Of a DNA stretch of 51,248 bases, positions 3,769-16,633 are shown one piece after another; position 1 is the stretch's first letter, and every line of letters begins with the position of its first letter. Source of the stretch: a virus; the IMG/VR virus record IMGVR_UViG_3300009656_000002. One strand, written 5' to 3'. The notes below the pieces were generated by a model. That model was not told the origin of the DNA. It worked only from the letters and a program-made list of their open reading frames with translations, and searched no databases. The position numbers and the translations under genes were made by a program.

Positions 3769-3838
3769 GCGACCTCCTCAAGGTCCAGGGGCTCGGGCGC
3801 GGGGACTATCTCGTCCACGTCCCGGCAGGAGTCCGGCC

Positions 3839-4302: not shown

Positions 4303-4866
4303 ATGGCGGGACGCGGAAAAGGCAACGAAGCACAGAAACGTGCGGAGATAGCCGGCCGGAGAGCAATCGTGGCCGAAGAGTACCGCAAGAAGAAAACCAC
4401 CCGGCAGATCGCCGAAATGCTCGGGTGCGACCACACCACGGTCGTCCGGGACGTCAAAGCCATTATCGCGGAACGCCGGAAGCACGCCCAGATCGATATA
4501 GAGGACGCGCTCGCCAACGAGATCGCCGGCCAGAACGCCTCGGAGGCGAACCTTCTGGCGATCGCCGAAGACGAGGAGCAAACCCCCGCGACCCGGATCG
4601 CCGCGGAGGCCGCTCTCGTCCGGGTCCGGGGCGAACGCGCGAAGCTCCAGGGCCTCTATGCCGCGCAACGGGTCGAATTGACCGGGAAGGACGGCGGGAC
4701 CATTGACGTCCGAAACTATCACGCCGAGCTCGCTTCGGTCCTCGATAAGGTCTTTACCGCCGGAGCTCCGCCGGCCGTTCATGGAGAGCCTGAGCCCTCA
4801 GGCGGCGAAGAGGCTGGCGACGGATTGGGAGATCCTCTTAGCGAGGGACAACCAGCTCCCACCTGA
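4303..4866 (+). CDS. terS: Terminase small subunit
   Basis: HTH QIAEMLGCDHTTVVRDV; C-terminal RVELTGKDGG motif; directly upstream of and overlapping terL. Confidence 0.8.
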   Translation: MAGRGKGNEAQKRAEIAGRRAIVAEEYRKKKTTRQIAEMLGCDHTTVVRDVKAIIAERRKHAQIDIEDALANEIAGQNASEANLLAIAEDEEQTPATRIAAEAALVRVRGERAKLQGLYAAQRVELTGKDGGTIDVRNYHAELASVLDKVFTAGAPPAVHGEPEPSGGEEAGDGLGDPLSEGQPAPT

Positions 4867-6484
4867 AGGCGACTGGACCAAGTGGCTTTTACTTTCTGGG
4901 AGAGGAAGCGGGAAGGCCCTCGCGCTCGACACGCCCCTCCCGACTCCCGGCGGATGGACGACCATGGGGGAGGTCCGGCCCGGGGCCCGCCTCTTCGACG
5001 AGACCGGCGCCCCGTGCACCGTTACGGCCGTGCACGAGGTCCAATTCGGCCGGCCGTGCTACCGGGTGGTCTTCGATGACGGATCGGCCATAGTCGCCGA
5101 CGCGGGGCACCTCTGGCGCACAACGGCGCGCGCCACGGGCCCGGCCACGGTCACGACCGATGAGATCCGCGCCACCCTCACCCACGGGCCCCGCGGCGAC
5201 TTCAACCACTCCATAGACGGCCCGGGAGACCTCTGCCGCGCGATCGTCGCCGTCGAGCCCGTCGCGTCCGTCCCCGTGCGCTGTATCGTGGTGGACTCGC
5301 CCTCGCACCTCTTCCTCGCCGGCCGCTTCATGGTCCCGACCCATAACAGCCGCGCGGGGGCCGAGTGGGTGATCAAGACGGCCCGCAATAACCCCGGGTG
5401 CCGGATCGCCATGGTCGCCAGGACCGCGGCCGACGTGCGCGACGTCATGATCGAAGGCGACTCGGGGATCATGAACATCAGCCCCGCCGACTTCACGCCC
5501 CGCTACCGGCCGAGCATCCGCCGGCTGGAGTGGCCGAACGGGAGCCAGGCCACCCTCTTCAGCGCCGAGGAGCCCGACGCGCTCCGGGGCCCCCAGCATC
5601 ATTTCGGGTGGTTGGACGAGATCGCGGCGTGGTCCCACCCCGAGGCTTTTGAAATGTTCCTCTTCGGCCTCCGGCTCGGCACTCACCCCCGGGTCGTGAT
5701 CACAACGACCCCGCGGCCGACGAAGATCATCAAGGATCTCATCGCCGACCCCACCTGTGTCACCGTCCGGGGCTCGACCTACGAGAACCGGGCCAACCTC
5801 GCGCCCGCCTACTTCTCCCAGATCATCCGGAAATACGAGGGGACACGCCTGGGGCGCCAGGAGATCAACGGCGAGATATTGGACGACAACCCCGGGGCCC
5901 TCTGGACCCGGGCCATCATCGACGCCAACCGGGTATCGGCCCTCCCCGAGCTCGTCCGGATCGTCGTCGGCGTCGACCCCGAAGCGTCCAGCGGAGAGGA
6001 GTCCGCCGAGACCGGGATCCTCGTCGTGGGACTCGGTGCCGACGGCCACGGGTACGTCCTCGACGACGTGACGATCCGCGGGACGCCCGGGGAGTGGGGC
6101 GCGCAAGCCGTGAGCGCCTATTCCCGGTGGGAGGCGAACAAGGTCGTGGGCGAGGTCAACAACGGCGGCGAGATGGTTGGGTATGTGGTCGGGACGTGCG
6201 CGAACGCGGCCAACGTCTTTGTACCGTACCGGGCCGTCCGGGCGTCCCATAGCAAAGAAGCCCGCGCCGACCCCGTGAGCGCCCTGTATGCTCAAGGGCT
6301 CGTCCATCACGTCGGCGTCTTCGCCGAGCTCGAAGATCAAATGACAGAGTGGGTACCGGGCCAGGGTATGCGGTCGCCGGATCGTGTCGACGCCCTGGTG
6401 TGGGCCATAACGGACCTGATGCTCGACATTGAATACGAGGCCACGGTCTATGACGAGGTGCCCGCTCCATTGACCTCCTGGTAA
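4703..6484 (+). CDS. terL: Terminase large subunit (Terminase_6 type) with intein
   Basis: Walker A GRGSGK/S, LRGPQ, Walker B WLDE, nuclease VGVDP and DRVDALVW. Confidence 0.95.
   Translation: MTSETITPSSLRSSIRSLPPELRRPFMESLSPQAAKRLATDWEILLARDNQLPPEGDWTKWLLLSGRGSGKALALDTPLPTPGGWTTMGEVRPGARLFDETGAPCTVTAVHEVQFGRPCYRVVFDDGSAIVADAGHLWRTTARATGPATVTTDEIRATLTHGPRGDFNHSIDGPGDLCRAIVAVEPVASVPVRCIVVDSPSHLFLAGRFMVPTHNSRAGAEWVIKTARNNPGCRIAMVARTAADVRDVMIEGDSGIMNISPADFTPRYRPSIRRLEWPNGSQATLFSAEEPDALRGPQHHFGWLDEIAAWSHPEAFEMFLFGLRLGTHPRVVITTTPRPTKIIKDLIADPTCVTVRGSTYENRANLAPAYFSQIIRKYEGTRLGRQEINGEILDDNPGALWTRAIIDANRVSALPELVRIVVGVDPEASSGEESAETGILVVGLGADGHGYVLDDVTIRGTPGEWGAQAVSAYSRWEANKVVGEVNNGGEMVGYVVGTCANAANVFVPYRAVRASHSKEARADPVSALYAQGLVHHVGVFAELEDQMTEWVPGQGMRSPDRVDALVWAITDLMLDIEYEATVYDEVPAPLTSW
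4916..5347 (+). mobile_element. Class-3 mini-intein (144 aa, no homing endonuclease) in the TerL Walker A motif
   Basis: Starts Ala (ALALDTPLPTP); block B HLW, block F VRC, block G PTHN followed by Ser +1; removal restores GRGSGKS. Confidence 0.9.
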
Positions 6485-6541: not shown

Positions 6542-6922
6542 ATGGGAGGTAACGGAGCATCGAGCAAGGGGGCCGGGGGCGGGGCAACCGTCCCCGTGAC
6601 ATCGAAGCGGTTTTACACGATGCCGGCGCGCGACATGCCGGCCGAGACTGCGACCGTTGCCGGGCGCAAGCTCGCCGCACAAAACGGGTTCGTTGATTAC
6701 AACTACCGCGGGATCATCCTGCGGCGAAAGACGGACGGGAGCTACATCGCTCCGCTCTATTACGACCAGCTCAAGTGGCTGAGTCGGTACGGCTACCCCA
6801 AGAAGGGCGGGGGGCCGGCGACCGTGAAGGCGATGGAATCAACGATCGATAAGGCCCTGGCGAACGCCGAGAAGGCCCTGAAGAAGGCGGCGGACGCCCG
6901 GAAGAGGAAGAAGGCGACGTAG
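6542..6922 (+). CDS. Basic protein with MGGNGASSKGAG leader
   Basis: Leader shared at DNA level with 9017; Lys/Arg-rich C-terminus; abuts DUF4417. Confidence 0.75.
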   Translation: MGGNGASSKGAGGGATVPVTSKRFYTMPARDMPAETATVAGRKLAAQNGFVDYNYRGIILRRKTDGSYIAPLYYDQLKWLSRYGYPKKGGGPATVKAMESTIDKALANAEKALKKAADARKRKKAT

Positions 6923-7690
6923 ATGGGCGCCGGCTATGCCATGCGGAACTGCGTGAAGCCGTGCGGGTCGCTCGACACCCAGAACACCCGGCTTTTGGAC
7001 TTCGTCGACGTCACGAACGACTCGGAAATGCCGATCATCCACGACACCCTCCTGAGTCCGCCGGCCGAGATCATGATCTGGGAGGGCCGGCCCCGGCTCT
7101 ATGCGGGGAAGTTCGTCCACCTCTACACGGAGGATTATCGATTTGAACAACTCTGGCGCCGGCCGGAGTTTTATTTACCCAAGATCCAGGCGTTCGCCGG
7201 GATATTCTCGCCCGACTTCTCCCTCTTCCGCGACTGGAATATCCACGTCCAGCGGAATAACGTCTACCGTTCGCGCCTCCTCGGCGCCTACTGGCAAGCG
7301 AACGGGATCCCCGTGATCCCGATCGTCTCGTGGGCCGGGCCCAAGACGTATTCGTTCTGTTTCGACGGGATCCCCGAGGGGTCCATGGTCGCGGTCTCGA
7401 CCGTCGGCGTCCACCGCGAGCGCGAGGCGCGGGCGATGTTCAAGGCGGGGCTCAAGGAGATGCTCGACCGGATCCACCCGCGGGCCGTCATATGCTACGG
7501 GAGAATCGAGAAGCTCCTCGGGGAGGTGCCGGAGCACTTCTACCCCTACAAGCCCGACCTCGTCGCGAAGGTCTCGCCCCTCTACGAATATGTCCGGAAG
7601 GACGCCCGGCTCATCCCCCAGGACGGGCCCCTCGTGCACCTGGAGACGCCGGACGGGCCCCGGCGGGAGCTCGTGGAGGCGCTCGCGTGA
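6923..7690 (+). CDS. DUF4417 domain protein
   Basis: HLYTEDYRFE, SPDFS, YRSRLLGAYWQ.NGIPVIP.VSW, FCFDG and VAVSTVG motifs. Confidence 0.85.
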   Translation: MGAGYAMRNCVKPCGSLDTQNTRLLDFVDVTNDSEMPIIHDTLLSPPAEIMIWEGRPRLYAGKFVHLYTEDYRFEQLWRRPEFYLPKIQAFAGIFSPDFSLFRDWNIHVQRNNVYRSRLLGAYWQANGIPVIPIVSWAGPKTYSFCFDGIPEGSMVAVSTVGVHREREARAMFKAGLKEMLDRIHPRAVICYGRIEKLLGEVPEHFYPYKPDLVAKVSPLYEYVRKDARLIPQDGPLVHLETPDGPRRELVEALA

Positions 7691-7869
7691 GCCGGCCCCG
7701 TGAGGCCGTGGTGGAGCCCCTGGGGCGCCTCGTGCTCCGGCCCGATAAGAAGGCCAACGGGGCCGCGTGCGATATGTGCGACCGATGCTTCGAGAAGGTC
7801 AACGTGGTCCGGGTCGACGGCGACGCGGTCCTCATGTGCGACCTCTGCCTCTCGTTCGCGCTCTATTGA
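7687..7869 (+). CDS. Zinc-ribbon protein (paralog of 8701 and 10265)
   Basis: CDMC...VNVVRVDGDAVLMCDLC. Confidence 0.6.
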   Translation: MSRPREAVVEPLGRLVLRPDKKANGAACDMCDRCFEKVNVVRVDGDAVLMCDLCLSFALY

Positions 7870-7926
7870 AAACAAAATCAAAACCTTTTTCTCTCTGACT
7901 ACCATATGGTAGTCGGTGACAACTGA
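7870..7926 (+). promoter_or_regulatory. Promoter/operator with perfect 18-bp palindrome and GGTGA RBS
   Basis: A-rich and T-rich tracts, then GACTACCATATGGTAGTC at 7897-7914. Confidence 0.65.
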
Positions 7927-8268
7927 ATGACCATCACCGACAACCACGCCGCGCGGGTCGAGCTCGCGCGCGCCGCGGTCGAGGCCGCGGAGGCCCGGCT
8001 CGGCCGCCTGGAGGCCGTGCGCGAGCATGGGGCCCCCGACCCGACGATCGCGGCGGAGATCGAGCTCGCCGAGCGCGACCTGGCGGAGAAGCGCCGGGCC
8101 CTGGATGCAACCGAGGACGCGCTCTCGCGCGAGTGGTGCGGGACGTGCGCCGACTTCGCGCCCGAGCGCCTCCCGGGAAAGGAGACGAACCTCTATGTCG
8201 GGACGTGCCGGCACACGGGCGATCCGACCTCCTGGAGCCAGCGGTGCGGGTGCTGGAGGCGCGCCTGA
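7927..8268 (+). CDS. Coiled-coil protein with C-terminal Cys cluster
   Basis: Helical N-terminus; C..C...C.H...C..W C-terminus. Confidence 0.65.
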   Translation: MTITDNHAARVELARAAVEAAEARLGRLEAVREHGAPDPTIAAEIELAERDLAEKRRALDATEDALSREWCGTCADFAPERLPGKETNLYVGTCRHTGDPTSWSQRCGCWRRA

Positions 8269-8708
8269 TGGCCCGCAAATTCCCGTCCGGCCACTACGAC
8301 ACCCCGCTCGGCGAGTACGTGAACACCACGACCGGGAAGGCCGTGTACGCGCTCGCCGACCGTTCGGGCCGGTGGTGCGTCCGCGGGCCCGTGCTCGCGC
8401 ACCGCACCGGCAAATGCGACACGGTCCCCGAGGCGATCGCGAAGGCGAAGGCCGCCCTGGAGGTCTCGCACACGGCCGACCGGAAGGCCGGCAACGGGCC
8501 CGGCCCGATCGCCTGGCGGGAGGGGGCTCCATCGGTCCCCGGGCACCGGCACGGCCGGGAGGTCCGTATGACCGACGACTACTGCTCCCACCGGGGCCCC
8601 ATGCCCGGGTGCGGGTGCGGCCGGTGGTGCAACGCGCGCCGCGTCCCCCTCTCGGCGGGCCCGTGCGATCCGAACTGCGAATACCGCACGGCCGCCCGGG
8701 GTGGTTAA
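8268..8708 (+). CDS. Hypothetical protein with Cys-rich C-terminus
   Basis: TGATG-coupled start at 8268. Confidence 0.55.
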   Translation: MARKFPSGHYDTPLGEYVNTTTGKAVYALADRSGRWCVRGPVLAHRTGKCDTVPEAIAKAKAALEVSHTADRKAGNGPGPIAWREGAPSVPGHRHGREVRMTDDYCSHRGPMPGCGCGRWCNARRVPLSAGPCDPNCEYRTAARGG

Positions 8709-9027
8709 GACGGCCGTATGCCCGATATGTGGACACCGATGGGTCGCCCGGTCGACGGCCCCCTGGCTGACGTGCTCACGGTGCCAGCGGAAGCATAAGC
8801 GGGGGGACGTGGCGCCCCGGGCCCTCGGGCTGGCGGTCGTCTATCCCGGCCGCGCCCGGTGCCAGGTCTGCGACGAGCTCGCGGAGGCCCTCGCGCCGGC
8901 CGCGGTCGGGGACGAGCCCGTGCTCGCGTGCGCCCGGTGCGTCGGAGCCCCGGACAAATGTGGAAATGTTGATATGCGGACCAGAGAAAAGAGAACACAA
9001 CCAGGCGGTGACAAACATGGGAGGTAA
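8701..9027 (+). CDS. Double zinc-ribbon protein
   Basis: CPICGHRW...LTCSRC...CQVC...CARC. Confidence 0.65.
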   Translation: MVKTAVCPICGHRWVARSTAPWLTCSRCQRKHKRGDVAPRALGLAVVYPGRARCQVCDELAEALAPAAVGDEPVLACARCVGAPDKCGNVDMRTREKRTQPGGDKHGR

Positions 9028-9388
9028 CGGAGCATCAAGCAAGGGGGCCGGGTCGGCACCCGCGAAGAACGCGGCGATCGCGCCCGCGGACGATCTGGAG
9101 CGCCTCAAAGCGATCGGAAAAGAGTGGACCGGCGGGGGAAACCATCGGATCTACTTCAACGATCTCCGGTCGCTCTACGGCCTCGATGCAACCTATTACG
9201 GGACGGGCAACATCTCGTCGGCGTCTATCGACGGCGTGGCTATCAGCAATAGCAAAGCCAGGGCGCTCGCCACGGATCTCCAATTCGGAAAGGTCTGGTA
9301 CGACGTGAAGACAAAAACCTTCAATCAGAAGGGGTTGTCGGATAGTGTATTCGAGCGCATCGTGAAGGCAATCCGCCGGAGGGCGTGA
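9017..9388 (+). CDS. Protein with MGGNGASSKGAG leader
   Basis: 36-bp leader nearly identical to 6542-6577; GGTGA RBS. Confidence 0.75.
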   Translation: MGGNGASSKGAGSAPAKNAAIAPADDLERLKAIGKEWTGGGNHRIYFNDLRSLYGLDATYYGTGNISSASIDGVAISNSKARALATDLQFGKVWYDVKTKTFNQKGLSDSVFERIVKAIRRRA

Positions 9389-9391
9389 TCC

Positions 9392-9862
9392 ATGGGTGGA
9401 AGTGGGGCGTCCTCGCGGCCGGCACCCAACCGGACCACATACCCCGACCCGGTCGCGGGCCAGGCGATCGTCGGCGAGACGTACGACGGCGTAACGTACC
9501 GCATGACCCGGAACGACCTCAAGAAGTCCGTCCCGGAAGACGAGCGCCTCAAGGCCGCCGCGGAAGCCCTCGCCGCACTCGACGCCGAGAAGGCCCGCCT
9601 GGGGAGGAAATACCCCTTGCGAAAGCGCGAACTCGCCCGGCAACAGCTCATGAGCTCGGTCGACTACCGCCTTGGCCTCGGCCAGGGCAAGCTCGACCGC
9701 ATCCGGGGCGTGTCGTACACCGAAGCCAGAACGACCTCGGCGTATAACATGGGCTATCACGAGGGGTGGAACGACAACCCGAGCCACTGGAAGCAGCAGA
9801 GGGCCACAAACCCGAACTTTTGGGCCCACGACAACAAAAAGCCGGTGCGGAAGCGGCGGTAA
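9392..9862 (+). CDS. Basic protein with MGGSGASS leader
   Basis: Leader variant; Lys/Arg-rich C-terminus. Confidence 0.7.
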   Translation: MGGSGASSRPAPNRTTYPDPVAGQAIVGETYDGVTYRMTRNDLKKSVPEDERLKAAAEALAALDAEKARLGRKYPLRKRELARQQLMSSVDYRLGLGQGKLDRIRGVSYTEARTTSAYNMGYHEGWNDNPSHWKQQRATNPNFWAHDNKKPVRKRR

Positions 9863-9897
9863 CATTTTTAAATCAAGACTACCAACGGTAGTCTTGT
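9863..9897 (+). promoter_or_regulatory. Archaeal TATA box plus operator palindrome (leaderless promoter)
   Basis: TTTTTAAAT about 30 bp upstream of ATG 9898; CAAGACTACC-AAC-GGTAGTCTTG at 9874-9896. Confidence 0.7.
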
Positions 9898-10260: not shown

Positions 10261-10264
10261 TCCC

Positions 10265-10531
10265 GTGATCGCAACGTGCCCCCATTGCTCGTATGTCTGG
10301 CGATCGGATGCCGGGAGGGATCGGATCACCTGCCCCAACTGCGGCCGGAAGTTTCCCCGCCCCGCGGTCGACATCGTCGTCCTCGGGCGGGGCGTCCCCC
10401 TCAAGACGACCTGCGACCTCTGCGGGTATCCGAAGGCGGAGCTCAATGTCTGCCGGATCGATGGCGAGTCGGCCTTCGTGTGCTCCGTCTGCCTGAAGGG
10501 GGCGACCGCCCCGCCCCACCCCCAGGAATAA
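10265..10531 (+). CDS. Double zinc-ribbon protein
   Basis: CPHCSYVW...ITCPNC...CDLC...NVCRIDGESAFVCSVC. Confidence 0.65.
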   Translation: MIATCPHCSYVWRSDAGRDRITCPNCGRKFPRPAVDIVVLGRGVPLKTTCDLCGYPKAELNVCRIDGESAFVCSVCLKGATAPPHPQE

Positions 10532-10643: not shown

Positions 10644-13157
10644 ATGGCCGCCCGCGTCTCCAACCGGGTGATCGCCGAACGGATCGATGAATTAGAAACG
10701 TTTATCGAGGATTCACTCACCGAGGCCGTCTCGGCGAACGCCTCGTGGAAAGACCCCCTCACCCTCACCCTCGCGCTCGGCGACGGCGAGGACGAGTATT
10801 CAGTGGATCAGATCCGCGAGGCCGCGCGGAATTGTTACGAGGCGTACCACGCGAACGCCCTCATCCGCCGGGCCGTCAACGTCAAGAGCCACTTCGTCTG
10901 GGGCCGGGGCGTCACCATCACCTCGGACCAGGTAGAGGTCAACGCGGTCCTCACCGACTGGCTCGAACGAAACCAGGGAGAGCTCGGCCACCTGGGGCGG
11001 GTCGAGAAGGAGATCCAGGTCCAGATCGGCGGCAATTTATTCTTACTCTGCCAGGTCGACGAGCTCGGCGCCGTGGAGGTCGTGACCGTCCCGATCAGCG
11101 AGATCGCCGGCTACCTCCGCGACCCGAAAAACCCGCGGAAGGTCTGGTACTGGAAACGGACGTTTACGGAGTACACGGTCCAGAAGGACGGCACGAGTAC
11201 GGGAAAGAGCCAAACCTACTGGTATCCGGCGCTCGGGCATAATCCCGAAAAGCAACCGAAGACGATCGGGGGGACGCCCGTCGTCTGGACCGACCGGCTC
11301 TACCACGCGCCCCTCCCGCGCGCGGGAAAGGGCGTGTACGGCCTCCCGGCGATCGTGGCGGGGATCCCGTGGGGCAAAGCCTACACGCAACACCTGAGCA
11401 ACGTGGCGAGCATCAACGCGGCCCTCGCGACCTTCGCGTGGAAAGCGACCGGGGCGAACCCGGCCGCGGCCCGCGCCGTCGCGGACATCGTCGACCGCCA
11501 GAAGAGGACGCCGATCCCGGCCGGGTCCACGCTCGCCTCGACCCCCGGGGTCACCATGGAGCCGATCCGGACGGCCGGGGTCGCCACGAGCGCGGACGAG
11601 GCCCGCCGCTTCGCGCTCATGGTGTGCTCCGACACGGACGTCCCCGAGCATATCCTCCTCGGGGATCCCAGTACGGGGAACCTCGCGACCACGAAGACGA
11701 TGGAGCGCCCCCTGGAGCTCGCCGTGCTCGACCGTCAGGCGTGGTGGGTCGATACCCTCACCCTCCTGGGGTCGTTCGCGGTCGAGGCCCGGGTGCTCGC
11801 GCAAGGCTTCGCCCCGCTCACCGGCAAGGTCGAGTTCGACGACTGGGGCCGGCGCCAGGTGCTCGTCTCCGTCCGCCGGGTCGTGAAGGACCACGAGACG
11901 GATCGCGAGGTCACGGAAGCCCGGGCCGCGAAGGCCGCGCCCGGCACGAAGGCGACGAAGAAGGAGGCCGCCGACGCGAACCTCGGGCCCGTCCGGGAAG
12001 AGGTCGCCGAGGTCACGGTCGAGTTCCCCGCGATCCTCGAACACGACCCGGTCTCGGAGGTCGCCGCCATCATCAGCGCCGCGACCGCCGGCACGGGGTC
12101 GCTCGCCGGGATCATGGACCGGGCCACCTTCCAGCGGTTGCTTTTGCGGGCCCTCAACATCCCGAACGTGGACGACGCGATCGCCGAGATGGACGACGAG
12201 GACATCGCCCGCCAGGTCGAGAGGCATGAGAACCCGCCCGAGCTGGAGCTCGCCCGCCAGGCCCAGGCCGCGAAGCTCGGCGGGGAGGAGCCCGACGAGG
12301 ACGACGAGGACGCGCCGCCGGCGAAGAAGGGCGTGAAGAAGCCGACGAAGCGCTCCCGGGACAACGACGTCGAAGAAGGGATCGAAGAGTCGCTCTCGGC
12401 CGTCGCGACCGCGCTCCAGGAGGTCGCCCGGACGGCCCTGGTGGAGGCGGAGCTCGCCGAAGCCTTCGATCCCACGGCCCCGGGGAAGTGGGTCACCCTG
12501 AAGGACGGCCGGCGGGTCTACATTAAGGACAAGGGGGCCGGCACGGGCCCGATGGGCCCCGGGACCGCCCAGTCGACGCTCGGGGCGGAACCGGCACCGG
12601 CACCGGAGCAACTGGCACCCGGGCCCGTCGACGAGCGCGGCCGGCCGGCCGCCGTGCGGAAACGGCTCGACGAGTTCACCGAATGGCACGCCGAGGACCG
12701 GGTCGAGAGCCTCCTCGTCGTGGCCCCCGACGGCTCGACCGTCTTCTACGGGACCGGGGACGTGCGAGGCGTCCCGTTCGACCCCGAGGACGCGGCGAAG
12801 TTCCCGGGATGCACGGCGATCCACAACCACCCGAGCGACAATTCCTTTTCGGATAAGGATCTCGCGATGACCGTAACGCACGGGATCGCCGAGCACGTCG
12901 TCGTCTCGCCGAAGTACGTCTTCTCCCTCGACACAACGGCGTACTCCGATCACGACGCGCACCTGGCCCTTGCCCGGCACGCGGTCGCCGAGGGCTCCCT
13001 GTATGCGAAATATCGCCCGAAGGTCCGGTCTGGAGAGATGGGCGAGAAAGAGGCGAGCAATGAGCACACACACGAGACCATGCAGATCGTGGCGTCCGAG
13101 TATCCCGGGATTCACTACACCCGGTGGATCCGCGGAAAGGGGATGGGGATACGATGA
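10644..13157 (+). CDS. Portal protein with C-terminal WxTxxG motif and JAB/MPN-like domain
   Basis: First large structural gene after terL; portal-like N-terminal about 510 aa (NALIRRAVNV, GGNLF, YGLP); acidic linker; KWVTLKDGRRVYI; E...HNHPSDNSFSDKD. Confidence 0.75.
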   Translation: MAARVSNRVIAERIDELETFIEDSLTEAVSANASWKDPLTLTLALGDGEDEYSVDQIREAARNCYEAYHANALIRRAVNVKSHFVWGRGVTITSDQVEVNAVLTDWLERNQGELGHLGRVEKEIQVQIGGNLFLLCQVDELGAVEVVTVPISEIAGYLRDPKNPRKVWYWKRTFTEYTVQKDGTSTGKSQTYWYPALGHNPEKQPKTIGGTPVVWTDRLYHAPLPRAGKGVYGLPAIVAGIPWGKAYTQHLSNVASINAALATFAWKATGANPAAARAVADIVDRQKRTPIPAGSTLASTPGVTMEPIRTAGVATSADEARRFALMVCSDTDVPEHILLGDPSTGNLATTKTMERPLELAVLDRQAWWVDTLTLLGSFAVEARVLAQGFAPLTGKVEFDDWGRRQVLVSVRRVVKDHETDREVTEARAAKAAPGTKATKKEAADANLGPVREEVAEVTVEFPAILEHDPVSEVAAIISAATAGTGSLAGIMDRATFQRLLLRALNIPNVDDAIAEMDDEDIARQVERHENPPELELARQAQAAKLGGEEPDEDDEDAPPAKKGVKKPTKRSRDNDVEEGIEESLSAVATALQEVARTALVEAELAEAFDPTAPGKWVTLKDGRRVYIKDKGAGTGPMGPGTAQSTLGAEPAPAPEQLAPGPVDERGRPAAVRKRLDEFTEWHAEDRVESLLVVAPDGSTVFYGTGDVRGVPFDPEDAAKFPGCTAIHNHPSDNSFSDKDLAMTVTHGIAEHVVVSPKYVFSLDTTAYSDHDAHLALARHAVAEGSLYAKYRPKVRSGEMGEKEASNEHTHETMQIVASEYPGIHYTRWIRGKGMGIR

Positions 13158-14383
13158 TCGGGATTGACGACTCGGCACACGAGCACCTGTATTACTCCCC
13201 GGTGTGCGCCCATTGCCGGCACCTGGACGAGACCACGCGGTTCAAGTGCGCCGCGTTCCCCGACGGGATCCCGTTCGCCATCTGGGACGGCGAGAACAAG
13301 CACACCTCGCCCGTCGACGGCGACCACGGGATCCGGTTCGAGCCCCTCGCGGCCATCGCGGAGGAGGTCGACAACCTCGACACCTTCCGCCTTCCGCGCA
13401 AAAAGGCGAAGGCGAAGACCAAGACCCGGGACACCTACGGGGCCCCGGGCCACTGGGTCACCATCCACGGCCGGCACGTCTTCATAACCGATGAGCCGAA
13501 CAACCCCGACCGCCCGTACGGGATCCCGTCGGAGCACCCCGGGCTCAAGGATATGCCCGATTGGCCCGAGGGCGAATCGGTCTTCGACCACAAAGTCCCG
13601 GTCCCGAAGGGCCTGGCCGAAGCGAAGACGACCGCCGACCTCGAAGCCTGGTACAAGGAGAATTACGAGGACTTCAAGATGGAGTTCGACGGGGCCGACT
13701 TCGAGACCGCCAAACAGACGGCGATCACGTATAACGAGCTCGCCACGCGGTATTACGACCTCGGTGTCAATGTGAGCCGGGTGACCGTCGACGACTGGAT
13801 GGACGAGAACGTGTACGCCGCGTATGAGAACGGGAAGATCTACCTGAACGGAAAGGCGTGGAAGGATCCCGTTGGGCTCGCCGAGTCCGTACGCAAGAAC
13901 GAGGCAACCGGCTTCCACCCCAAGGGCGTGACCGATCCCCAGTCGATCCTCGTCCACGAATACGGGCACGCCGTTATGGACGCGGTGAGCAAGGACCGCG
14001 CGACCACGACCTTCACGGGCTACACCCGCGCAAGCTCTCTTGCGGATCAATATGCGCGCCCGCCCCGTGAGGGGACCGTCGACGCCGCCATGCTTGAGTA
14101 TTACCGGAGCTCCGACTCACGGGCCGCCATTTCGGAGTACGCCGTCAAGGGGCGCTCCATCGACGAGGAGACATGGGCCGAGGGCTTCGTCGCGATCCAT
14201 TACGGCGCCCCGGCGAGCGCGCTCCCGCGCGTGAAGATGCAACGGAATATCATCGAGATCCTGACCGAGTCGCGCCAGAAGGATCTACCGTGGCCGGTCG
14301 CCGTCGAAACGCTCCCCGAGAAGAAGCGCAAAAAGGCCGAGGCGGAGCTCGACGCCGTGCTGAGGAGGCTGAGGGACGTATGA
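13154..14383 (+). CDS. Modular cargo protein: Cys/His CxAFPDGIP domain + WxTxxG motif + zincin metallopeptidase
   Basis: CAHCRH..CAAFPDGIP..GDHGIRFEP; HWVTIHGRHVFI; HEYGH..ISEYA..EETWAEGF. Confidence 0.75.
   Translation: MIGIDDSAHEHLYYSPVCAHCRHLDETTRFKCAAFPDGIPFAIWDGENKHTSPVDGDHGIRFEPLAAIAEEVDNLDTFRLPRKKAKAKTKTRDTYGAPGHWVTIHGRHVFITDEPNNPDRPYGIPSEHPGLKDMPDWPEGESVFDHKVPVPKGLAEAKTTADLEAWYKENYEDFKMEFDGADFETAKQTAITYNELATRYYDLGVNVSRVTVDDWMDENVYAAYENGKIYLNGKAWKDPVGLAESVRKNEATGFHPKGVTDPQSILVHEYGHAVMDAVSKDRATTTFTGYTRASSLADQYARPPREGTVDAAMLEYYRSSDSRAAISEYAVKGRSIDEETWAEGFVAIHYGAPASALPRVKMQRNIIEILTESRQKDLPWPVAVETLPEKKRKKAEAELDAVLRRLRDV
13317..13359 (+). repeat. 43-bp exact direct repeat, copy 1
   Basis: acggcgaccacgggatccggttcgagcccctcgcggccatcgc, identical to 14525-14567. 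Confidence 0.95.
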
Positions 14384-15447
14384 CCTACACCAGGGCGCCG
14401 GCCTGTATGGAGTGCCGGCATTACGAGCGCGGGACGGACGACCCGGTCCCGCGGTGCGCCGCGTATCCCGACGGGATCCCGGACGCCATCTTCTTCGACG
14501 GCAACCCGCACACGGCCGCCAGGAACGGCGACCACGGGATCCGGTTCGAGCCCCTCGCGGCCATCGCCGAGGCCGAAGCCTATCCCGGGACGGAGTGGAG
14601 AACGATAAACGGCCGGCGCGTCTGCATATCCGGAGATTGCCCCAAGGGGACGCGGATCGAAGACCTGCCGGGAGAGAAGGCCGGGGCCGGTTCGTTGGAC
14701 GATCGGCGGTACCTCGATGACAACGAGAAGGACATGTACCTGGGGGTCGACAAGCGATACGATCGCGACAAGAAAAAATACTATGTCCTCAAGTCGGACG
14801 AGGAGGAGAAGCGGCAGCGGGATCAAAAGGACCGCGAACACCGCGAGGAGCGGGCCCGGCTCGAACGGGAGGCGAAAGAGAAGGATCCGGGCGCGTTTTC
14901 AGTGGTGGTCGGGAAGACGACGGTCCCGGGCGCCGTGTACAGGGTGGACTACCCGCTCGGCAAAAACTTGCACTGCGCATATTTCGACAAAGACGGAAAC
15001 CATATCGATACCGACATTGGAAAGGCAACGCCCGACGAGATCGCCCAGTGGAGCGCCCGCGCGAAAGAGGTCGTCGCGACCACCGCGAAGATCGGGATCG
15101 ACCCCGCCGAGGATCTCTATGTCCGGTACGGCCGGATCCCCAAGGGCGGGCGCTCGCTCAATCACGCCACGCGGGAACTGGAGAAAGGCACGTCGGTCTA
15201 TTCGGGCAAGTTCGACCCCGAGACGGGGTTATTCGACATCGCCGACACGCTCGGCACCGGGCAATTCCAGGTACTCGAAGCGGCGGGAAAGACCCCGTAC
15301 CTCGTCCGCGGTGAGAAGATCGGCACCGGGTCCGACGGCGAGCCCGTGCTCAAGGACGCCTATGCCACCCACCAACTGAAGGTCACCGCGGACGGCCTCG
15401 CCATCGTCAAGCGTCTCAGGCGGCCACGGAAGACAGGCGGGGGCTGA
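14380..15447 (+). CDS. Modular cargo protein: Cys/His domain + WxTxxG motif + unknown effector (possibly ART-like)
   Basis: CMECRH..CAAYPDGIP..GDHGIRFEP; EWRTINGRRVCI; YVRYG..GTSVY in the C-terminal part. Confidence 0.7.
   Translation: MTYTRAPACMECRHYERGTDDPVPRCAAYPDGIPDAIFFDGNPHTAARNGDHGIRFEPLAAIAEAEAYPGTEWRTINGRRVCISGDCPKGTRIEDLPGEKAGAGSLDDRRYLDDNEKDMYLGVDKRYDRDKKKYYVLKSDEEEKRQRDQKDREHREERARLEREAKEKDPGAFSVVVGKTTVPGAVYRVDYPLGKNLHCAYFDKDGNHIDTDIGKATPDEIAQWSARAKEVVATTAKIGIDPAEDLYVRYGRIPKGGRSLNHATRELEKGTSVYSGKFDPETGLFDIADTLGTGQFQVLEAAGKTPYLVRGEKIGTGSDGEPVLKDAYATHQLKVTADGLAIVKRLRRPRKTGGG
14525..14567 (+). repeat. 43-bp exact direct repeat, copy 2
   Basis: Identical to 13317-13359. Confidence 0.95.
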
Positions 15448-15674: not shown

Positions 15675-16633
15675 CAGCGCGGATCATCTGCGGCGACGCG
15701 CTCACGGCCCTCTGCGACCTTCCCGACCAGTCGGTTAATACCTGTGTCACCTCGCCCCCGTACTGGGGGCTGAGGGACTATGGCGTCGACGGACAGATCG
15801 GTCTCGAAGAGACGCCGGAGGCGTACGTCTCCCGGCTCGTCGAGGTCTTCCGCGAGGTGCGGCGGGTGCTCGCCGACGACGGGACGCTCTGGCTGAACCT
15901 CGGCGATTCGTACAACGCGGCGGGGCGGGCCGGACACGGGACACGGATCGGCTACAAGCAAGGGACCAACCGGGCGAGCGCGAACGGCTCCGACGCGAAC
16001 CGACCAACGGCACCGGAGTTAAAAGAAAAAGACCTCGTCGGCATCCCGTGGCGCGTCGCGTTCGCGCTCCAGGCGGACGGGTGGTATCTCCGGCAGGACA
16101 TTATTTGGCACAAGCCGAACCCGATGCCGGAGAGCGTTCGCGACCGCTGCACGAAGGCACACGAATACCTCTTCCTCCTGAGCAAGTCACCGCGGTACTG
16201 GTTCGACCATGACGAGATGACAGAGGAGTCGGTCTATCCCCCCGGCACCCGGAAGGACGTTCCGAAAGGGGGCTTCAACTCGAAGTATGCCGGTGACGTT
16301 GCGCGGAAGGGCGACGAGTCTTTCCGGGCAATCCGCGAGAGGCGCAACCGCCGCGACGTGTGGACGGTCGCCACGAAGCCATACGCCGAAGCCCATTTCG
16401 CGACGTTCCCCCCAGACCTGATCCGGCCGTGCGTCCGCGCGGGATGCCCGGTCGGCGGCGTGGTCCTCGACCCGTTCGCCGGTGCCGGCACTACCGGACT
16501 GGTCGCGCTCGAAGAGGCGCGGAACTTCCTCGGGATCGAGCTCAATCCCGAGTACGTCGCGCTCATCGAAAAGAGACTCGCGCCCCTTCAGAGCATCGCC
16601 ACCCTCGACCAATTCACGGAGGCCGAAGCGTGA
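15671..16633 (+). CDS. DNA N4-cytosine/N6-adenine methyltransferase (beta class)
   Basis: Catalytic VTSPPY precedes SAM-binding DPFAGAGTT; IIWHKPNPMPES. Confidence 0.93.
   Translation: MTARIICGDALTALCDLPDQSVNTCVTSPPYWGLRDYGVDGQIGLEETPEAYVSRLVEVFREVRRVLADDGTLWLNLGDSYNAAGRAGHGTRIGYKQGTNRASANGSDANRPTAPELKEKDLVGIPWRVAFALQADGWYLRQDIIWHKPNPMPESVRDRCTKAHEYLFLLSKSPRYWFDHDEMTEESVYPPGTRKDVPKGGFNSKYAGDVARKGDESFRAIRERRNRRDVWTVATKPYAEAHFATFPPDLIRPCVRAGCPVGGVVLDPFAGAGTTGLVALEEARNFLGIELNPEYVALIEKRLAPLQSIATLDQFTEAEA

Follow-up and report, generated by a model that had tools for sequence, protein, structure and literature searches.

DUF4417 and a short N-terminal glycine tag on unrelated neighboring proteins make up a widespread two-part viral module

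The stretch of DNA analyzed here (the window) is IMG/VR virus record IMGVR_UViG_3300009656_000002, 51,248 nucleotides long. It represents one whole contig of a tailed virus (51.2 kb, 67% GC) and, according to Pfam and PHROGs, encodes a large terminase (terL), portal, maturation protease, tape measure and tail proteins. The block between terL and portal contains a gene for a protein of the DUF4417 family, together with three genes whose products begin with almost the same short Gly-rich peptide (the tag) and are otherwise unrelated (Table 1). Comparison with further viral loci places this arrangement in a widespread two-part viral module, in which DUF4417 is accompanied by tagged proteins of very different kinds.

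The three tagged open reading frames (ORFs) start with MGGNGASS (ORF 6542), MGGNGASS (ORF 9017) and MGGSGASS (ORF 9392). As an earlier sequence-only reading of the window had stated, the first 36 bases of ORFs 6542 and 9017 differ by a single synonymous change, and ORF 9392 has the same type of peptide. Identity between the first two leaders ends abruptly on both sides, and the peptide of ORF 9392 is written in other codons. Past residue 12, no mutual BLASTP match at E<1 was found among the three proteins, in keeping with the claim that their bodies are unrelated. The same reading had called two of the three highly basic; the basic charge stands and the count does not, since all three are basic (isoelectric points (pI) of 9.8-10.2), each with a Lys/Arg-rich C-terminal tail. 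None of them has a Pfam or PHROGs match. The coordinates likewise agree with the earlier statements that ORF 6542 abuts the DUF4417 gene, its stop codon TAG (6920-6922) lying directly 5' of the DUF4417 ATG (6923), and that the whole block sits between terL and portal. The ATG of ORF 9017 is internal to a longer GTG frame. The 2.28-Mb assembly that includes the window contains 24 ATG ORFs of 50 aa or more beginning with MGG.G; just three begin with MGG.GASS, and these all lie in one 2.9-kb stretch of the window.

Relatives of these proteins reveal how tag and body are combined. A homolog of ORF 6542 carrying an MGSRGASS tag is encoded upstream of DUF4417 in another viral locus (L114). The product of ORF 9392 is built from the tag and a linker of about 28 residues joined to a domain that is also found untagged: a 96%-identical homolog starts with MGGRGASS, and homologs at 45-53% identity have neither tag nor linker. 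One untagged homolog of this payload is located on a small contig (L242, P0123) that encodes a Cdc6/Orc1-type initiator, and the sequences suggest that the payload family circulates on archaeal mobile elements.

Table 1. Genes and leader copies of the DUF4417-tag block and its flanks in the window
Feature	Coordinates	Strand	Details
Tagged cargo gene 1	6542..6922	+	126 aa, starts MGGNGASSKGAG, pI 10.2, basic C-terminal tail
Leader copy 1, 36 bases, codons 1-12	6542..6577	+	35/36 identity to 9017-9052, flanks unrelated
DUF4417 gene, candidate TGT/DpdA-like TIM-barrel enzyme	6923..7690	+	255 aa; PF14386, phrog_940
Tagged cargo gene 2	9017..9388	+	123 aa, starts MGGNGASSKGAG, pI 9.8
Leader copy 2, 36 bases	9017..9052	+	
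Tagged cargo gene 3	9392..9862	+	156 aa, starts MGGSGASSRPAP, pI 10.1
Large terminase terL, with intein-like insert	4703..6484	+	Pfam Terminase_6N/6C
Portal with C-terminal HNHPS-motif cargo domain (about 12441-13157)	10644..13157	+	phrog_10963, phrog_5057

The association between DUF4417 and the tag was assessed in both directions. An alignment of DUF4417 was used to collect 80 further viral loci (28-66% GC), giving 81 DUF4417-selected loci in all (1.0 Mb). With a strict tag start defined as M-G-(G/S)-(R/K/N/S)-G-(A/S/G), these loci contain 93 such starts, every one on the DUF4417 strand and between -3 and +3.5 kb of the gene, with none in the remaining 508 kb of that strand and none on the opposite strand (1.0 Mb). 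The strict tag is present in 61 of the 81 loci, and variants of it in about 11 more. The reverse test picked sites solely by a DNA pattern for MGGRGA(S/T)(S/T)G and counted those preceded by 2.5 kb or more of sequence; DUF4417 was encoded on the same strand at 50 of 53 leader-selected sites, mostly abutting or overlapping. The tag consensus reads M G (G84/S12) (R93/S3) G (A75/S14) (S57/K12/N7) (S56/I11) G. The link between DUF4417 and the tag thus exceeds chance by far, which bears out the earlier statement that DUF4417 genes neighbor MGGRG-type proteins. A chance origin of the tag starts was considered and is ruled out by their absence elsewhere in the same contigs and by the mere three MGG.GASS starts in the assembly. 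If the module is defined by one or more same-strand M-G-(G/S)-x-G-(A/S) ORFs no farther than about 3 kb from DUF4417, whose bodies are unrelated, the window has three such ORFs. The window's own leader, used as a degenerate DNA pattern, gave no match in viral contigs, and a single-protein locus search of viral contigs found one close relative only.

The closest annotated relatives of the window's DUF4417 protein are the gp1 proteins of cluster A mycobacteriophages, in which gene 2 overlaps the end of gene 1 and encodes a protein that starts with MGGRGSGGGPGPG, continues with a Gly-rich linker and ends in a "VIP2-like toxin" or "metalloprotease". Three different MGGSGA.. genes lie between terL and DUF4417 in a viral contig whose DUF4417 is 96% identical to that of the window (L003), and six MGSRGA.. 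genes lie in the same interval in L114 (DUF4417 61% identical). The module is located among packaging genes in the window, L003 and L114, and at the left genome end in cluster A mycobacteriophages. In the cluster A phage Kampy, whose gp1 is presumed to be DUF4417, genes 1-31 are late (PMC4626039). The hosts of module-bearing phages range from Mycobacterium to Clostridia and streptococci, with an archaeal virus in addition.

Several features mark the tag as a peptide signal. Leaders within one genome differ in synonymous codons, with both Ser codon families used in one locus (L023). Each genome keeps to one tag dialect, that is, all GGRG, all GSRG, or GG(N/S)G in the window virus: mixed position-3 dialects occur in one of 23 multi-tag loci, compared with 11.7 expected, a value reached in none of 20,000 permutations. 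Such genome-specific dialects are the pattern expected from a genome-specific tag reader. The sequences thus show selection on the tag at the level of the protein. The MGGRGASS start of the 96%-identical ORF 9392 homolog indicates that the Arg of GGRG is dispensable.

In addition, the tag occurs behind other N-terminal sequences. Eleven DUF4417 neighbors from low-GC viral loci start with M..(D/N)(L/I)Q(L/F)F, and GGRGAS comes immediately after it (for example, ..NLQLF|GGRG..). This upstream sequence matches MLxx(D/N)LQ(F/L)F'A, the motif at which the host enzyme Prp cleaves L27 as well as capsid and scaffold proteins in phage 80alpha (PMC9405229, PMC5744158). Unlike in those substrates, the residue after the cut would be Gly rather than Ala. 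Since the motif stands directly before GGRG, such cleavage would expose the same Gly-Gly end as Met removal does in MGGRG proteins. This gives indirect support to the earlier idea that the mature Gly-Gly N-terminus matters, and the tag probably acts as a free N-terminus. The Prp motif (D/N)LQ(F/L)F is absent from the three window proteins, all of which have plain Met-Gly starts. A further tagged protein (L042:7796-8047) combines an MGGRG start with a Prp-type site, LKINIQLF|A, 14 residues on, where host Prp might cut the tag off its payload. The tag can also be internal: in seven loci (L024, L038, L039, L044, L060, L064 and L074), none of which has a separate Met-Gly-tagged gene, a family of about 255 aa encoded after ParB-DUF4417 consists of a domain of about 72 aa, GG(R/N)GASS and an HNHPSGG-motif domain. 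The internal tag of L038 is GGNGASS, the same as in the window.

These observations also bear on the idea that the common start acts at the nucleotide or translational level, for instance as a GGAGG-like box behind the start codon, or that it is a Gly run of low complexity or due to chance, with no role as a peptide. A Shine-Dalgarno-like GGAGG is indeed found within ATGGGAGGT, and two of the window leaders are almost identical as DNA. However, the peptide is kept with different synonymous codons, including both Ser codon families, so that a nucleotide-level feature and recent gene conversion are excluded as general explanations. Moreover, the same peptide recurs after Prp leaders and internally, distant from start codons, it is conserved from 28% to 67% GC, and no tag starts are found on opposite strands. 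The translational explanation is effectively ruled out by the codon data, and the idea as a whole is left with next to no credibility.

The window's DUF4417 protein matches PF14386 with 179.4 bits (cut-off 28.9; E 6e-53; residues 31-196) as well as phrog_940, and all 30 aligned relatives match PF14386. Invariant residues in the alignment are H66, D71, Y72, E75, W78, P97-D98-F99-S100, N113, R116 and Q125. Two structural models from family members 38% identical to each other were searched against 48,161 structure chains by a method other than Foldseek. For the window protein (AF2, pLDDT 82), the highest scores were obtained with ArcTGT (1iq8, Z 9.6), QTRT2 (6fv5, 8.9) and DpdA (7ui4, 8.4), on which it superposes with a root-mean-square deviation of 3.2-3.6 over 155-166 aligned residues, and TGT (3unt) scored 7.5. 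For the second member (pLDDT 92), the corresponding values were 10.8 for ArcTGT, 9.9 for DpdA, 9.7 for QTRT2 and 8.0 for TGT. ArcTGT, DpdA and QTRT2 are therefore the top three for both models, with generic TIM barrels at Z of at most 8.3, and the earlier suggestion of a TGT-like TIM barrel is upheld to this extent. A Foldseek search of the PDB gave no match at E <= 0.001, just weak generic TIM barrels. Judged from these models, DUF4417 is TGT-like in fold and no more than a candidate member of the TGT family. The catalytic aspartates of DpdA, acting as general acid/base and nucleophile, are Asp95 and Asp256, and the invariant D98 in P-D-F-S may be the counterpart of the acid/base Asp, which is followed by an aromatic residue.

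Many DUF4417 homologs are fused to a ParB domain (PF02195), and such fusions have been mentioned alongside ParB-methyltransferase fusions (bioRxiv 10.1101/2025.10.10.680097). A comparable pair is formed by DpdA and the ParB-fold ATPase DpdB, which DpdA requires for the insertion of preQ0 into DNA (PMC10164549). Both systems would combine a TGT-fold TIM barrel with a ParB-fold NTPase on DNA, and the DUF4417 models match DpdA at Z 8.4-9.9; genomic context and ParB fusions fit a nucleic-acid enzyme. In contrast to DpdA, the constant companions of DUF4417 are the tagged proteins. The window's DUF4417 stands alone, and the sole ParB domain found in this virus is fused to a DNA methyltransferase (48710-49942).

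The fold and the ParB fusions would also suit a DUF4417 that works alone as a DNA- or RNA-modifying enzyme, in the manner of phage DpdA, with the tag as an independent capsid-targeting or portal-binding peptide and the two kept together merely by an accessory hotspot beside the packaging genes. Effectors packaged into the head are known to cluster in the packaging region, and a comparison of the G/S tag dialects with DUF4417 alignment columns found no convincing covarying column, a comparison underpowered by its six S-type loci. The adjacency is, however, too strict for a hotspot, given DUF4417 at 50 of the 53 leader-selected sites across diverse hosts and tagged genes that never occur elsewhere in 1 Mb of the same contigs, and the dialects suggest a genome-specific reader. 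Independence of the two parts is accordingly regarded as improbable.

Beyond the tag, the cargo is highly polymorphic, with 107 tagged proteins falling into 51 payload clusters. Pfam matches among them comprise Gln_amidase, ADPrib_exo_Tox, PBECR2/3 and DUF6883, and the payload types recognized by Pfam or PHROGs are glutamine deamidase (papain-fold toxin 1), ADP-ribosyltransferases, PBECR2/3 RNases, DUF6883 and zinc proteases. The payloads of the window, L003 and L114 are small, helical and basic, with no family match. ADP-ribosyltransferases, at least, are known as fusions to MuF or portal proteins that are packaged into heads (PMC9503650). The tagged module resembles these MuF- or portal-fused effectors in several respects: swappable effector domains, including the ADP-ribosyltransferase class, are encoded among packaging genes, PBECR-type RNases are also found among the tagged payloads, and deployment is presumed to occur with the injected DNA. 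It differs in that the cargo has no MuF or portal domain and bears a tag of about eight residues instead of a domain of about 250 aa, with a separate gene for a TGT-fold enzyme as the constant partner. Pfam detected no MuF domain in the window's three proteins, nor in any of 60 tagged proteins.

The window virus also has a portal-fused cargo domain of its own. The C-terminal domain of its portal carries a IHNHPSDNSFSDKDL (JAB/RadC-like) motif and shares homology with the C-terminal body of the proteins of about 255 aa that bear an internal GGRG (BLASTP against L044, E 2e-4). The same family, phrog_5057, is matched by the portal C-terminal domain, by the internal-GGRG family and by one tagged protein. 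That one domain is borne either by a portal fusion or with the Gly motif argues for virion delivery.

An alternative use of the same parts would keep them in the producing cell, with DUF4417 modifying or processing the N-terminus of the tag (by acylation, nucleotidylation or glycosylation) to activate, stabilize or neutralize the cargo, as a toxin-handling or addiction/defense cassette that involves no virion loading. The enzyme-like set of conserved residues in DUF4417, the many toxins among the payloads and the lack of a tagged protein in one virion protein list (phage Str01, below) speak for such a role. Against it stand the consistent location of the viral modules in the late packaging region, the absence of evident immunity genes after most tagged genes in the viral loci inspected, the head-packaged MuF fusions of payload-like ADP-ribosyltransferases, and the nature of the window payloads, which are small basic proteins and not recognizable toxins. 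On balance, this role is considered unlikely.

The explanation that best accommodates the module, and on which our confidence is evenly divided, is that proteins with the tag are clients of an enzyme of TGT fold, which loads them as cargo to be delivered together with the viral DNA, possibly through covalent coupling. The first part is DUF4417, a small, enzyme-like TIM barrel of the TGT/DpdA fold that is ParB-fused in many phages, and the second is the one to six neighboring genes with otherwise unrelated products and a common short N-terminal tag. After Met removal, the mature tag would read G-(G/S)-(R/N/S/K)-G-(A/S)-S-S (GGNGASS and GGSGASS in the window) and would serve as a portable handle that labels proteins as DUF4417 clients. 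Swappable cargo, that is, small basic proteins here and toxins elsewhere, would thereby be loaded and would reach the next host along with the viral genome.

For the chemistry of this loading, the favored step would be a base exchange on nucleic acid catalyzed by DUF4417, in which the free alpha-amine of the first Gly of the tag may act as the incoming nucleophile and so tether the cargo to DNA. Precedent for such a step is provided by TGT/DpdA base exchange and by N-terminal-amine glycosylase/lyases. In T4 endonuclease V (Thr2) and Fpg (Pro2), the N-terminal alpha-amine attacks C1' of a DNA nucleotide to give a covalent protein-DNA intermediate. These enzymes illustrate that a free protein N-terminus can serve as a nucleophile; they employ their own nucleophile and form a transient link, whereas the DUF4417 proposal, which is purely hypothetical, involves the N-terminus of a separate client protein. 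In its fullest form, DUF4417 would be a protein-to-nucleic-acid transglycosylase of bacterial and archaeal viruses, which removes a base as DpdA does (with ParB as a clamp where fused) and lets the Gly-Gly alpha-amine enter, such that the cargo is covalently tethered to the genome, co-packaged and injected; this version is put forward as a long shot. As a fallback, DUF4417 might act as a noncovalent adaptor or chaperone.

Delivery guided by a short peptide has a parallel in the T4 internal proteins (IPI-III and Alt), in which a short N-terminal capsid-targeting peptide is found on unrelated, often basic proteins that are packed into the head and injected. In T4, this signal attaches to the scaffolding core, and the prohead protease cuts it off at (L/I)xE. 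The Gly tag is likewise a short N-terminal peptide common to unrelated, often basic proteins. Unlike the T4 sequence, its leader has no (L/I)xE site, the T4 signal is not known to involve a partner enzyme of TGT fold, and the packaging role of the tag is putative.

Several points weigh against loading by a TGT-fold enzyme that reads the tag. The TGT family (PF01702) was unmatched at E up to 10 in 30 DUF4417 members, and a profile search of PDB sequences returned nothing relevant. At about half the size of DpdA and with no sequence similarity to it, DUF4417 lacks the C-terminal zinc subdomain of TGT, its conserved core ending near residue 200 with no conserved Cys/His cluster, and the alignments show no evident conserved Asp at the TGT-nucleophile position or near the C-terminal strands. 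For want of a sequence link, a zinc subdomain and an evident nucleophile Asp, base exchange by DUF4417 is unproven. On the side of the tag, the Arg of GGRG is replaced in the window and varies even between 96%-identical homologs, and the internal GG(R/N)GASS of the 255-aa family implies that a free N-terminus would require extra cleavage or is not always required. The DUF4417 (APZ81899) and the tagged protein (APZ81907) of the S. pyogenes phage Str01 are both missing from the 12 proteins of its virion proteome (PMC6195288), a weak negative, since small basic proteins present in few copies readily escape detection; a literature search found no virion proteome for cluster A mycobacteriophages. 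A folded protein tethered to DNA would also be mechanically awkward to pass through the portal channel. The gene pair, the two-way association, the protein-level conservation of the tag, the polymorphism of the payloads, the fold resemblance and the late packaging-gene location are shown, whereas action of DUF4417 on the tag, delivery in virions and the chemistry are inferred.

With respect to the host, the assembly with the window is archaeal, as judged by its ArcTGT-type genes and a pair of TBP genes. Contig C17 ends with a CRISPR array (82600-83268), and this array with the 29-bp repeat GAGTTCCCCGTGTACGCGGGGATGAACCG and 10 spacers lies downstream of cas1, cas2 and cas3. One of its spacers is identical to window positions 3783-3814, and a second has five mismatches to positions 16379-16410, inside an N6_N4 methylase gene; AAG precedes both protospacers. 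The tetranucleotide profile of C17 fits the bin, and the spacer matches tie the virus to the archaeal metagenome-assembled genome, provided that C17 is correctly binned. The window virus is thus probably an archaeal virus. A search of 400 further genomes from the archaeal phylum of the host turned up no DUF4417, and so no integrated relatives for comparison.

Other features of the window were recorded alongside the module. The terL product has 593 aa, compared with 387 aa in near-identical relatives (L116-L123), and the extra segment (roughly 4916-5530), which splits the Walker A region (..GSGKA|LALDT...THN|S..), looks like a mini-intein. A palindrome, GACTACC-N3/4-GGTAGTC, is present at 7897-7914 and 9877-9893 (two occurrences, with none expected), each time in an AT-rich gap shortly before the start of the following gene (7927 and 9898), and the pair is likely a shared operator or promoter element within the accessory block. 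Three small zinc-ribbon genes (CxxC...CxxC) are interspersed among the tagged genes (7687-7869, 8701-9027 and about 10261-10531), with genes of a similar kind in L114 and L116-L123. Downstream of the portal, the genes at 13124-14383 and 14377-15447 share a Cys-rich N-terminal domain (..AAFPDGIP..GDHGIRFEPLAAIAE..) and have differing bodies, forming a second cargo-cassette series in this virus. The product of 13124-14383 has an HEYGH zincin motif and shows weak similarity (E 0.03) to the metalloprotease body found in gp2 of cluster A phages. Pfam and PHROGs gave no family annotation for the zinc-ribbon genes, the portal tail and the post-portal genes.

To date, no description of the tag or of its pairing with DUF4417 has been found in full-text literature searches, in which "MGGRG" returned irrelevant papers only, and the mentions of DUF4417 that were found are made in passing; the module to which the window belongs has therefore not been found described in print. 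The new elements are the two-way statistics, the Prp-site variants, the genome-specific dialects, the replicated match to the TGT-family fold, the portal-fused payload homolog and a probable archaeal-virus member with an Arg-less tag. Even with packaging wrong, the strict pairing of enzyme and tag constitutes a testable biochemical problem, and coupling to DNA, if covalent, would represent an enzymatic protein-DNA conjugation of a new type. If the proposed loading is true, recruiting any protein as viral cargo would take no more than a Gly tag of eight residues and a single small enzyme of TGT fold, and the tag might possibly serve as a minimal label for loading foreign proteins into phage particles. 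A tag beside DUF4417 would become a sequence rule for phage effectors and anti-defense proteins, and a widespread DUF would receive its first function. Genes 1 and 2 of hundreds of cluster A mycobacteriophages, as well as many "hypothetical" genes beside terminase genes, would be explained, and mycobacteriophages, phages of gut Clostridia, streptococcal phages and an archaeal virus would have an address-label system in common.

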